The notes: generated by a model not told the origin, from the letters alone. Shown: positions 44,959 through 63,616, numbered from the stretch's first letter. The stretch: 64,000 nt of DNA from Euglena gracilis (GCA_039621445.1 CP154954.1:47471847-47535846), one strand, 5' to 3'. Program-made: numbers and translations.

Positions 44959-47900
44959 GGTGCTGTGGCCATGTTTTCTGAGACTGGTGAGAAGTTGGCA
45001 AAGTACAGCAAGGTTTGCTTTCAGTTTTTTCCCCGATGCCAATGCCAGCCATTCCTGGGTTTTTACTGCACCACTCAAGTGAGTTGTACAAAGTTAAAAA
45101 TCTGTGAAAAATGCAATTGCATGTGCGTTGTGTGCGTTGTGCGTGTCTGTGTTCAGCACATACGAGCATTTGCTCATTGGCTGCCCCCCCCCCTGGGGGG
45201 ACCAGTTTTTTTTTCTTCACTGGCTCTTGGCCTGGAGAGAGTGGGTGGGTGGGTGGGTCAGGAAATTTAAGCCAGACCCCACCTCAGCTCCTGGGGGTCC
45301 AGCCAGCATTCATTGGGGACCATTTTGAATTTCTTCTGATCCTTTAGGCCATTTGTTTTTGTTTTGGGGGCTATTTTCGGCAATTTTGCCAATTTTTGGC
45401 CATTCTGCGAAATTCCGGGGAAGTGTTCGGCCATGTTGGGTAATTTCTGGCTACTGTTGGTTTTTTCGGTTTGCTTTTTTTGGCAATCAGGTATAATTTT
45501 GGTCATTTGGGCCATTGCCAGTGGCAAAATCATCCTAATTTGCTGAAAATGGCCCAAAATTGCCAAAAAGTAGTCAGAATCGGTCTCAAATGATCCGAAA
45601 GTAGCTGATTGTGCGGTTATGGCCTGAAACGGCCCCAAAACACTCCACATGAAATGATTTGCCATTTGGGTCACTTCAACATGTCCAAATGTGGCCCGGT
45701 TTCGGAAAAAATTTTCCGCTTATTTTCCGCATATTTTTCTGCATTAGTGCCAATTCCCGCATAGGCTAGCACATAATTGGGGGGGCCTTTTAGCGCATAT
45801 TTCCCCCCCTGCAAAGTGAATCCTTGGCAGCAGCCTCCTCAAACAGGTCAATGAATCCATTTTTATTCGCATGCAGTATGATGAAGAAATCCGGAAGGAG
45901 TTGGGACCCGTTGCCGAGAACAATTTTGTGATCTTCTGGGACAGCAACATTAACGGAACCCTCACGCTTCCAACAGGTGTGTGACGAATCGGATGCTCAT
46001 TTCGAGGGTGGAAGCGCAAGAGTCTCCAGCCAGTCAGCTTTGCTTTTCTGGCCATTCTCAGCAAGGTTTCACGTGATTTGATGGAACCCTTTTGCACAGC
46101 CAACGTTTTGGACTGAACCTTCGCATAGTTTTAAAAAAAATGTTGGCTTTCTGTTTTGCTGGATTTCCCCGTAAGTTGCGACCCTTTTGTGTGTGGATGT
46201 TTCCTCTGCTGTTTTCGATTTCGCATTTTTGAATTTTCCCCTCTTTTTTCCCCAAGGGTTCGTGTTGCACCCCCCCCCTCCCGGGGACCTGTTCCTGCAA
46301 AATTTTCTGAAGTGCTCCTATTTTTCCACACACAAAGATTATTCTTTATGTGCATCTTTTCCCGTTTATTTAGGTTTTTTTGAGTATTCAAATTTTGGAG
46401 GAGGATGGGGACCTTTGGCATGGATGCACCCCCCATGATGCGGTGGGTGTGGGGTGTGGGTTGATTGGTTGGGAGAGATTGATTGAATTTTGGTCCACAG
46501 GTCAAGGGAGAGTTGCACAAGCATATCCCACGCTCACCCCCAGGACACACTGGCAAACGTCTCCATGATGTTTGCTCTTATTCCTGGGAAGATGTAGTGC
46601 AAGCTTTGTGTGCTTGGAATGGATTTTGGTTGGGAGCATTTCCCATTTTTTAACAGATTCACCCAAAGTGTCGGGGTGTGGCTTTTCTGGACCTCGCGTC
46701 TGGGAGGGCGGCATCCCTCAGGGTATTAAGTGAGAATTGGTTTTGTTTGGGGGGGGCAGGGCTGTACGGGAATCCAGGGGTCTGTGCTTATCCTGAAACG
46801 GATAACCATGGATAACTTCGCCCCCTCCCCCCCCCCCCCAGGTGGTGAGTCCGGATTATGCCATTGTGGAAAGTGTGTCCGACCGAACCACCCTGGGGGG
46901 GTGACTGATTGGCTGAGTGGCTTTGGCTCCAGACCCCCTCCCCCCGCGCGAGGGGGTTGCCACCAGGCTGTATTTTAGTTGGGTGCCGACCCCACCTGGG
47001 GGGGGGGTGCCTGCCTGGGCAGGCACACCAAGGCACTCCAAATCCGACCCCCCCCCCGGGGGTAGGGCACACGGCCAAAAGTGCCCTAGCACAATCCCGG
47101 CGCTGAAGGCGCCGGTGAGCCAAAAATGGCCTACTTTCAAAGGAATGTGCCCGGGCACAGGCCGAAATCCGACCCCCCCCGGGGGGTAGTGCCTGCCTGG
47201 GCAGGCACTCACAGGCACTCCGGACCCCCCCAGGGTTCGATATAAGGAGGGCGTACATGGTTTAGGTGGGGGGTGTCCCCCCCACCCCCCCCTCCTGGCC
47301 CGCAGGGGGGGGTCCGGACCACCCCCTCCTCTCCTTATATCGAACCCTGGGACCGACCCTCGGGGGGGGTACCCGGGACCCCCCAAAAAGGGTCAATTTT
47401 TTCCTCCGGCGCTTTGCGCCAAAATTTTTTGCATTTTTGGCCAATTTTTGCCCAAAAAGTGCCCAAAATGGCACTTTTGGTCGTTTTGGGGGGTCAAAAA
47501 TTTTCGGTCACCCTGACCGCGCCACTGTTTAGGTGGGGGGGTGTCTCCTCACCCCCCCCCCCCCCTCCTGGCCGCAAGGGGGGGGTCCGGCCCCCCCCCC
47601 CCTCTCCTTATATCGAACCCTCCCCCCCCCCCGGGTTGGTAAAAAACAGCCTGGTTGCCACCCGGCGCCAAAGGTGCCAGAATTTTTTTTTGATTTTTGA
47701 CGTGTCAAAGTGACCAACCCCCCCCCCCCCTGTCTTGGGGGGGAGGAAGTGGGTGACTGGTTTTGAAAGTGACTGACTGGTTTTTTTTTTGAAAGTGGAA
47801 AGTCATCCCTCCCCGGGGGGCACCTACGGGGGGGACGGTAGGCAATGGTATGGTAAGGACCCCCCCCAGTTCTAAAATAACAACTCTGATGGGGGTTCAA

Positions 47901-62900: not shown

Positions 62901-63616
62901 CCACAATGCACGCAGCCAGAGCTCACAAGAGCACCCAAGAGCACACACAAGCACCCTATAGCACCCATCCGACCCCCCCCCCCCCCGGGGGTAGATGTTC
63001 CCCTGGGCTCCTGTCATGCTTGTGCTTACCGACCGGGGGGTGGGGGTGCCATAGGGTGCCTGCCTTTAGCAGGCACCCCCCCCCCCGGGGGGGGGTCCGG
63101 GGGGGGCGCAGAAAATTTTCATTGAAAATGGCCTTTTCCAGGCCCCCGGCGCCGAGGTCGGGGGGGGGGAGTACCTGGTATGGGCAGGCACCCCCAAGAA
63201 TCCTCCGAGGCGGGAGGATTTGAATTGGACACGGCAACCACGTGCCCATCCATTCCCAGGGTCGCGTGCACAGCCAAAAGGACGGGTAAAAGGAAGCGGA
63301 ATTGTTGAGGGTTTTCATTTTGACCCCCCGTGTTTGGGCAGTTCTCTGAAAAAGATGCGGGAGAAAATAATCTGGGAGAAAGTTGCAGCTTCAAGGACCT
63401 TTTCTCACCTCTTTTGAACAAATTCTGGGAGCCGGAGTTTTTTCAGGAGTCCCAATACCCGGTGATTTTGCAAAAAAAAATCCACCATTTGTCCACCGGA
63501 AATTTGTTTGGACCCCTCCTGCAAGCCATGGTCTGGTGGGCGCTGCGGGCAGCATCGGTGAAAACGTGGAGCCCGCCTCCGTGAAGTTCAGCGGCAGCAC
63601 CCCCAAGGATTTGTGA
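44959..63616 (+). CDS. psaD: Photosystem I subunit II (PsaD) precursor, apparent two-unit polyprotein; targeting presequence not located
   Basis: Eleven phase-compatible exons: 44959-45012, 45877-45976, 50176-50345, 53172-53217, 55401-55498, 59329-59397, 59902-59986, 62481-62668, 62875-62913, 63551-63616 (ten listed; the upstream one is missing). Canonical motifs [43 protein letters not shown] and SIGEN...VKFSG are present. Confidence 0.85.
45877..45976 (+). CDS. Divergent PsaD-like unit, exon A ([34 protein letters not shown])
   Basis: tgcag| and acag|gt boundaries; FVIFWDS...LPTG aligns to PsaD YVITWTS...LPTG. Confidence 0.8.
46964..47653. mobile_element. CAGGCTG-family MITE with perfect 8-bp TSD gttgccac, carrying a nested cagggttcgatataag element (47231-~47621)
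   Basis: TIR, TSD and nested TIRs are all visible. Confidence 0.88.
49562..49968. mobile_element. MITE (cagggttcgatataagga TIR) with perfect 8-bp TSD ccctctcc
   Basis: TIR and TSD are both visible. Confidence 0.9.
50176..50345 (+). CDS. Divergent PsaD-like unit, exon B ([56 protein letters not shown])
   Basis: ttcag| and gag|gt boundaries; the EQCLAL, PNG and LHPK motifs are retained. Confidence 0.85.
50836..51861. mobile_element. Second copy of the GAATAAGTAC element with 7-bp TSD tttagtc
   Basis: Same TIR and internal sequence as 28726-29717. Confidence 0.85.
55551..57970. repeat. Intronic tandem duplication (two units of about 1-1.4 kb plus a partial third)
   Basis: tttcttcaccagacagcaactgagcagtc recurs at ~55621, ~56582 and ~57936 with collinear flanks. 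Confidence 0.8.
56761..57080. mobile_element. MITE (caggcttctttttaag TIR) with perfect 8-bp TSD gtttggtc
   Basis: TIR and TSD are visible; the paralogous empty site lies at ~56052. Confidence 0.9.
59398..59901 (+). other. Nonconventional intron in psaD
   Basis: gctCAGggttt pairs with aaactCTGtttgc|a; removal gives [18 protein letters not shown] with correct PsaD spacing. Confidence 0.88.
59902..59986 (+). CDS. psaD: PsaD exon ([28 protein letters not shown])
   Basis: PsaD motif, bounded by a nonconventional intron upstream and a GT donor downstream. Confidence 0.9.
62481..62668 (+). CDS. psaD: PsaD core exon
   Basis: [66 protein letters not shown] bounded. Confidence 0.97.
62914..63550 (+). 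other. Nonconventional intron in psaD
   Basis: agcCAGagctcacaaga pairs imperfectly with tctggtgggcgCTGcgggc|a; removal gives HNAR-SIGEN. Confidence 0.85.
63551..63616 (+). CDS. psaD: PsaD terminal exon ([21 protein letters not shown])
   Basis: Typical PsaD C-terminus, ending in TGA. Confidence 0.9.
   Translation, partial: SIGENVEPASVKFSGSTPKDL

Follow-up and report, generated by a model that had tools for sequence, protein, structure and literature searches.

In the passages on polyproteins in PMC6242988 and PMC4938576, Euglena plastid polyproteins are described as a series of mature units behind a single presequence, the units being separated by a stromal protease. The polyproteins named in those lists are RBCS, LHC (LHCI/LHCII), PGK and EF-Ts; PsaD is not among them. 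The closest described system to the locus reported here is a PsaD precursor of Euglena gracilis deposited as 9VFJ chain D (hereafter P0001), a 698-aa protein with three tandem PsaD domains and two 15-residue linkers, the sequence of which was built from published transcriptomes, as stated in the main text of Kato et al. 2025 (PMC12577709). Full-text literature searches, and main-text passages of Euglena photosystem I (PSI) papers, yielded no printed statement in which PsaD is called a polyprotein. We report here an arrangement of this kind, located on the plus strand at 44959-63616 of a 64,000-nt stretch of E. gracilis DNA (GCA_039621445.1 CP154954.1:47471847-47535846; this whole stretch is hereafter the window, and all positions are counted from its first letter). 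In agreement with this source, its closest protein match is a UniRef entry that carries the name of the species, and chains of E. gracilis PSI in the PDB are identical or almost identical to it.

That the locus is a nuclear E. gracilis PsaD polyprotein gene with two unequal units is well supported by homology. The stripped-down first unit (unit 1) is the new element, the polyprotein architecture itself being already known. We favour, with a probability of about 0.55, the reading that unit 1 is an in-frame passenger domain that is unable to act as PsaD and is not a PSI subunit.

Results

Gene structure and linkers

Exon borders were set by tblastn with the known precursor P0001 and by inspection of the borders. 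Over 18.7 kb, ten exons (A-J) join into a single open frame with phases that fit at all junctions, and they encode, in this order, linker 1, a 96-residue PsaD-like core (unit 1), linker 2 and a complete 198-residue Euglena-type PsaD (unit 2). Exons A-C amount to 324 stop-free nucleotides, that is, 108 codons for the linker and the 96-aa core, and exons D-J to 597 nt, comprising 198 codons and the stop TGA. An earlier note on this DNA had claimed that the exons join in one open frame, which is borne out by the consistent phases and the absence of stops in unit 1. Only small corrections to it were needed: exon B ends at 45976, exon C starts at 50176 and unit 2 contains exon E as well.

Both units start with a GAVAMF(S/A)ET linker, the one that joins the units of the known E. 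gracilis PsaD precursor. When all six frames were searched, exactly two copies of the 12-residue linker were recovered, with scores of 59 (linker 1, starting at 44959) and 56 (linker 2, starting at 53172), the next best string reaching 28. In their first nine codons the two copies show three synonymous differences and one non-synonymous difference. Splice signals and homology thus yield the features of a polyprotein, two mature units in a single frame with a short conserved linker before each, and the polyprotein interpretation of the earlier note is sustained by homology to the three-unit P0001, the same 15-residue linker sequence of which opens exons A and D. An alignment of the PsaD proteins suggests that this linker may derive from the original PsaD N-terminus. 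A possible third linker at about 51290 was considered and rejected: it lies within the C|D intron in an open reading frame (ORF; 51287-51466, plus strand) that holds a faint linker-like string and has the second-highest codon-usage score among intron windows (11.9), but its linker score is below 22 despite that codon score, and the resemblance is probably due to chance.

Exon A (44959-45012, plus strand) encodes linker 1, 12 residues long, and six further residues; it starts and ends in phase 0, between an AG acceptor at 44957-58 and a GT donor at 45013, with an in-frame stop eight codons upstream. Exon B (45877-45976, plus strand; 100 nt) encodes the N-terminal beta-strand part of the unit 1 core (..FVIFWDS..LPT+G) and ends in phase 1; its borders are GT-AG, with the donor GT at 45977-78. 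Exon C (50176-50345, plus strand; 170 nt) continues the unit 1 core, including a 19-residue segment; it ends in phase 0 with linker 2 following immediately, and has a GT donor at 50346. Exon D (53172-53217, plus strand) carries linker 2, also of 12 residues, followed by DSK and the first base of a Pro codon, and has its donor GT at 53218. The joint between 50345 and 53172 rests on the GT after codon 108, on an in-frame stop four codons past 50345, on the acceptor AG at 53170-71, which is part of an in-frame TAG before exon D, and on the analogy with P0001. As exon D starts exactly at the linker, has an in-frame stop just upstream and is not preceded by a presequence of its own, unit 2 would depend on the upstream exons for targeting.

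GT-AG borders are present in seven introns, including all three of unit 1, and absent from F|G and I|J. These two introns of unit 2 correspond to 59398-59901 and 62917-63553, their joins being fixed by gapless homology to P0001, and the I|J junction is ambiguous by one AGC. Both resemble the non-conventional introns of Euglena. The B|C intron of unit 1 agrees in position and phase with the G|H intron of unit 2. The motifs quoted in the earlier note were recovered on the plus strand where it had placed them: in unit 1, FVIFWD at 45925, LPTG at 45967, TEEQC/EQCLAL at 50223-50246 and LHPK at 50322; in unit 2, GSTG at 59386, RKEQC at 62528 and FPEK at 62657.

Unit 1 is a PsaD core without arms

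Exon C (translation of 50163-50345) matches the Pfam PsaD family (PF02531) over profile positions 42-98 of 136 with 41.7 bits (E=1e-10), well over the cut-off of 22.4 bits, so that the profile search proposed in the earlier note gave a clear match. Exon B alone gave no match in the Pfam search. Against a custom profile of 115 PsaDs with 142 positions, spliced unit 1 scores 52.5 bits over positions 25-102, the best of 1000 shuffles reaching 6.9. Exon C alone scores 36.2 bits on this profile, and the gain of 16 bits indicates that exon B contributes in register across the splice.

Unit 1 is not a full-length PsaD, the first 24 and the last 40 positions of the profile being absent. What it retains is the central sheet-helix-hairpin segment of PsaD; what it has lost comprises the GSTG N-terminal strand, the Euglena antenna-anchoring helices, DGVFPEK and the whole C-terminal arm. 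This anatomy, with the core kept and GSTG, DGVFPEK and the C-terminal arm gone, is as the earlier note described it. Neither tblastn with P0001 nor a further scan of the unit 1 introns revealed relics of exons E, F, I or J beyond chance. Exon C closes with ..LHPKEVAE before the linker, much as internal units of P0001 close with ..TPKDVQTE before theirs, a likeness that suggests one in-frame deletion between two PK(D/E) sites.

Within the retained segment, erosion is considerable. Unit 1 keeps 31 of the 60 columns that are conserved in at least 90% of the family and one of nine conserved basic residues, the split between conserved and variable columns being weakly different (Fisher p=0.08). The description of unit 1 as more acidic holds only marginally: isoelectric points are 5.05 against 5.85 for the whole units, in the direction claimed, and 6.76 against 6.88 for the aligned cores, where the difference nearly vanishes.

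Unit 2 is a complete PsaD

Unit 2 aligns without gaps with the 198-residue third unit of P0001 and spans PsaD profile positions 10-140, as a full-length domain with the GSTG strand and the C-terminal arm; it keeps 53 of the 60 family-conserved columns and seven of the nine conserved basic ones. Exon E (55401-55504, plus strand), which was located by a tblastn match with P0001, encodes the Euglena-specific N-terminal helical domain of PsaD, including a 19-residue segment, and 34 of its 35 aligned residues are identical to residues 4-38 of 9UAS chain D, the first residue spanning the splice junction. Such extra N-terminal PsaD helices are reported, in the text on antenna attachment in PMC13066549, PMC13230849, PMC12965295 and PMC13076659, to anchor antenna proteins to the PSI core. 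The 40-residue "insertion" described in the text of PMC13076659 equals the helical domain at the N-terminus, for which exons E and F code at this locus.

The remaining exons are likewise all on the plus strand. Exon F (59329-59397; a 24-residue segment) has 83% identity to P0001 by tblastn and is gapless against its third unit. Exon G (59902-59986), which encodes a 29-residue segment followed by G and ends at a GT donor at 59987, matches Pfam PsaD with 42.8 bits (E=4.9e-11; translation of 59893-59988), and exon H (62481-62668), which covers the PsaD core through DGVFPEK, with 97.6 bits (E=5.8e-28; translation of 62489-62674). Exon H is identical to residues 93-153 of 9UAS chain D at 61 of 61 positions. 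Exon I (62875-62916; a 15-residue segment) was found by tblastn with P0001 and is likewise gapless against its third unit. Exon J (63554-63616) encodes a 21-residue segment and the stop TGA at 63614-63616; at 20 of 20 positions it agrees with residues 679-698, the C-terminal end of 9VFJ chain D, and the last 34 residues of unit 2 equal those of the terminal unit of P0001. The GC content at third codon positions (GC3) of unit 2 is 0.78. In 9UAS, chain D starts three residues before PAWQ, which fits removal of the linker.

Origin, age and constraint of unit 1

A maximum-likelihood tree was computed from 50 rows and 142 columns; its bootstrap values had yet to stabilise completely, and the placement of long rows in it is difficult. 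Unit 1 falls within the Euglena clade, in a set of seven rows, six of them from Euglena, with a support of 99/99, and its terminal branch stands at the program ceiling of 10, the median being 0.049. The tree bears on the idea that unit 1 is of separate origin, a remnant of the original PsaD of the alga that was joined in front of a cyanobacterium-like replacement. This idea could appeal to the loss of "PR" from the Euglena FKPRIEN motif, as unit 1 reads FKITD at this place, like sequence P0127, and sequences P0123 and P0126 also lack both residues; furthermore, the best non-Euglena PDB match of unit 1 is a glaucophyte PsaD, whereas outside Euglena unit 2 is best matched by PsaDs of about 140 residues, which were taken as cyanobacterial. 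Unit 1 nevertheless shares with Euglena PsaDs the specific states LPTG, AEM and VI.W as well as the linker, its B|C intron has the position and phase of G|H, and the tree places it in the Euglena clade. A separate origin, rejected by the tree, is accordingly regarded as highly improbable. Judged by tree and alignment, unit 1 is an old, fast-evolving duplicate of a Euglena-type PsaD unit, and not the relic of a different PsaD.

Over 70 core codons, the proportions of synonymous and non-synonymous differences between units 1 and 2 are 0.61 (pS) and 0.33 (pN), the pairwise ratio of non-synonymous to synonymous change (dN/dS) being about 0.35. The copies are old, since 16 of 34 identical residues with degenerate codons use different codons. 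Two simulations were run in which the observed nucleotide differences were scattered, one uniformly and the other with position-specific rates and composition. Identical residues between the units number 36 of 72, against 23.4 and 24.5 expected (P 0.002 and 0.004), and conserved hydrophobic residues kept number 17 of 24, against 8.3 and 8.9 expected (P 0.0001 and 0.0009). The contrast between the hydrophobic and the basic class has P=0.0015. Part of this constraint signal stems from the conserved unit 2 lineage. In our reading, selection has acted on the fold core of unit 1, and the arms and the basic surface were abandoned in the meantime. The hydrophobic core and the upstream linker of unit 1 show residual purifying selection, which favours the functional interpretation of the earlier note, and for this reason a function of unit 1 is not to be dismissed.

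These same figures, together with the codon differences at identical residues, speak for an alternative in which unit 1 is a working PsaD-core mini-protein, selectively maintained, from which both arms and the basic docking surface have been removed and which is freed at both linkers. Such a protein would be co-delivered one-for-one with PsaD and might have its own role in PSI assembly or biogenesis, in regulation, or as a non-competing decoy. It would also fit that all three unit 1 introns are GT-AG, that the GC3 of unit 1 is 0.65, against a GC content of 0.46-0.53 in the introns, and that linker 1 is canonical although cleavage upstream of a spacer seems needless, the boundary between presequence and first unit of P0001 being degenerate. 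Speaking against it, 29 of the 60 conserved columns are lost, and the fact that unit 2 has to be translated is already enough to account for the open frame and the splice sites. The earlier note had counted the open frame of unit 1 as evidence of function; this argument fails, as the PsaD that follows would be lost too if a stop or frameshift arose in unit 1.

The search for relatives points the same way. A phmmer search with exon C of 1.84 billion representative proteins, libraries from which E. gracilis transcriptomes seem to be absent, gave nine matches with E<=0.001, none of them closer than ordinary PsaDs; those of PsaD length were at most 53% identical, and none was an orthologue. A word-index search for relatives of unit 1 ("longer" lengths) produced 15 candidates, none of which was scored. 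Metagenome scans, in a collection that seems to lack euglenophyte contigs, gave 172 pattern matches for exon C and 353 for the stretch from P0003, a precursor relative described below, none being confirmed in either case. Main-text passages of published Euglena PSI papers name eight core subunits and no extra PsaD-like one. The roles offered in the earlier note, those of a PSI assembly factor, a regulator or an extra subunit, therefore find no direct support, with no orthologue among the representatives and eight PSI core subunits published. Taking both sides into account, we consider a working mini-protein less likely than a passenger, but a serious alternative and the main one.

Upstream sequence and targeting

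The sequence upstream of exon A was searched for an exon encoding a targeting presequence, of which Euglena plastid polyprotein precursors have one at the N-terminus, made up of a signal peptide, a transit peptide and, as a rule, a stop-transfer segment. Upstream, tblastn with P0001, presequence included, gave only chance-level matches. Hydrophobicity scans of 38000-44958 and of the whole upstream plus strand revealed nothing convincing, and in codon-usage scans of 42740-44958 no score reached the 99.9th percentile of those for intron windows. Candidates at 42408, 43415 and 43507 were looked at and none was convincing. A coding-like stretch at 42527-42658 was also rejected as a presequence, for it fits instead, in frame, an upstream coiled-coil gene on the plus strand. 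The exons of that gene lie at 32982-33269, 37123-37320, 37670-37900, 42140-42298 and perhaps 42527-42736; they are heptad-rich ORFs with GC3 of 0.64-0.94 and with weak coiled-coil-type matches only in Pfam. The fourth of these exons can end at 42298 or 42300, and 42527-42658 joins it in frame with the donor at 42301. The stretch 42527-42658 probably ends the coiled-coil gene, which seems to run to about 42736.

Either the 5' exons of the PsaD gene escape these methods or this copy lacks them. The single import event proposed in the earlier note is accordingly hypothetical. The locus might be non-productive as read, either as a 5'-truncated duplicate without a presequence or with the unit 1 exons outside the main mRNA, their exclusion occurring through separate transcripts or through joint skipping of B and C, which would keep the frame. 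The failure to find a presequence-like exon in 38000-44958 by hydrophobicity, in 42740-44958 by codon usage, or by tblastn, counts in favour of a non-productive locus, as do the same-strand coiled-coil gene reaching to about 42736 and the fact that 9UAS chain D is not a product of this gene. The scans, however, have limited power for short or atypical exons. Moreover, unit 2 is intact, with its high GC3 and its gapless alignment with unit 3 of P0001, and exons A and D start exactly at the linker behind a good acceptor, as internal exons of a polyprotein should. The divergence of unit 1 greatly exceeds that of unit 2, and the state of unit 1 is therefore older than any recent inactivation of the locus. 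We regard a non-productive locus as improbable.

Other features of the window

A repeat some 400 bp in length, containing long runs of G and of C, is found dispersed at 36295-36706, 47246-47710 and 49577-49978, with a partial copy at 38399-38568; the copies are 77-85% alike and two of them lie within the unit 1 intron B|C. No gapless repeats of at least 150 bases were found in the window, a search that missed the dispersed repeat because its copies differ by indels. Microsatellite-like runs at 35977-37100 and 40768-40960 translate as YIYIYI and CMYVCMYV repeats. Rfam gave 0 matches over the window.

Discussion

The mechanism that we propose is as follows. A single mRNA would carry both units and, after import, a stromal polyprotein-processing protease would cut at the linkers; unit 2 would then enter PSI, and unit 1 would be released as a fragment of about 11 kDa unable to replace PsaD. 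Unit 1 would be kept in frame because the PsaD behind it would be lost through any stop or frameshift in it, or if only one of exons B and C were skipped. Its core would stay able to fold because its production matches that of an abundant protein one for one.

Several points weigh against considering unit 1 as a passenger. The sparing of its hydrophobic residues fits a protein with a function of its own as well as it fits a passenger, and the same applies to the conserved upstream linker, with the few codon differences given above. Loss of the basic surface is not significant by itself: unit 1 keeps one of seven conserved basic residues, against 2.4-2.5 expected (P 0.21-0.25, code-aware null), and the residue classes were picked after the data had been seen. 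All junctions, including that from 50345 to 53172, rest on splice signals, phase and homology, and the presequence exon sought upstream by methods that could miss short or atypical exons was not found. Lastly, 9UAS chain D ends with a 20-residue segment plus seven residues, whereas unit 2 is terminal here and ends ...SGSTPKDL, from which it follows that the 9UAS chain is an internal unit of another PsaD polyprotein paralogue and not the product of the 44959-63616 locus. The PSI-bound protein thus comes from another paralogue, and expression of the present locus is only putative.

PsaD would be added to the few plastid proteins that Euglena is known to make as polyproteins, with a sequence already in the PDB. 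If the passenger reading is correct, the locus shows the fate of a polyprotein unit that is no longer needed: as death by frameshift or stop is closed to it, it undergoes in-frame shrinkage and surface change, its frame, splice sites and linkers staying held. For Euglena gene models, an open frame within a polyprotein is not evidence of function. If, on the other hand, unit 1 serves a function of its own, it would represent a new factor related to PSI and the first functional PsaD-derived paralogue, a case of neofunctionalisation inside a polyprotein.

Structural work in which PsaD is numbered from transcript fragments across two units is also affected. The PsaD numbers in the text of PMC13076659 (L90, R113, E118, S130) can be reconciled with internal unit 2 or 3 of P0001 only by placing residue 1 within the unit before it, so that the transcript-derived "PsaD" of that paper probably spans a unit boundary.

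Compared with P0001, the locus comes from the same species, uses the same linker and encodes the same extended PsaD unit of 198-201 aa. In P0001, all three units are complete and are preceded by a presequence with two hydrophobic stretches; the locus described here has two units, the first of them truncated and about 50% identical in the core. A further relative from a JGI source, P0003, which is 90% identical, likewise runs from one unit into the next through this linker. P0005, a gene call of 199 aa from an ENA contig of 866 kb, is 84% identical to exon H, and it contains extra read-through sequence exactly after LPTG and FPEK, that is, at the G|H and H|I positions, which suggests that another euglenophyte genome has introns at these same positions.

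Beyond PsaD, known polyprotein linkers are decapeptides, whereas the PsaD linker has about 12 residues; the AM...TGEK pattern is similar in both (PMC6242988 and PMC4938576). The E. longa RBCS linker is given in PMC4938576 as NMAAMTGEKD, and that of E. gracilis is said there to differ at residue 1 only. The E. longa RBCS polyprotein, as presented in the sections of PMC4938576 that describe it, also provides a precedent for the arrangement found here, a highly divergent unit with three in-frame deletions being followed by a linker and a canonical unit. That species is non-photosynthetic, processing was not detected in it, and the deletions remove 1, 5 and 5 residues. Unlike the E. longa unit, unit 1 of the PsaD locus has lost its whole N- and C-terminal regions.

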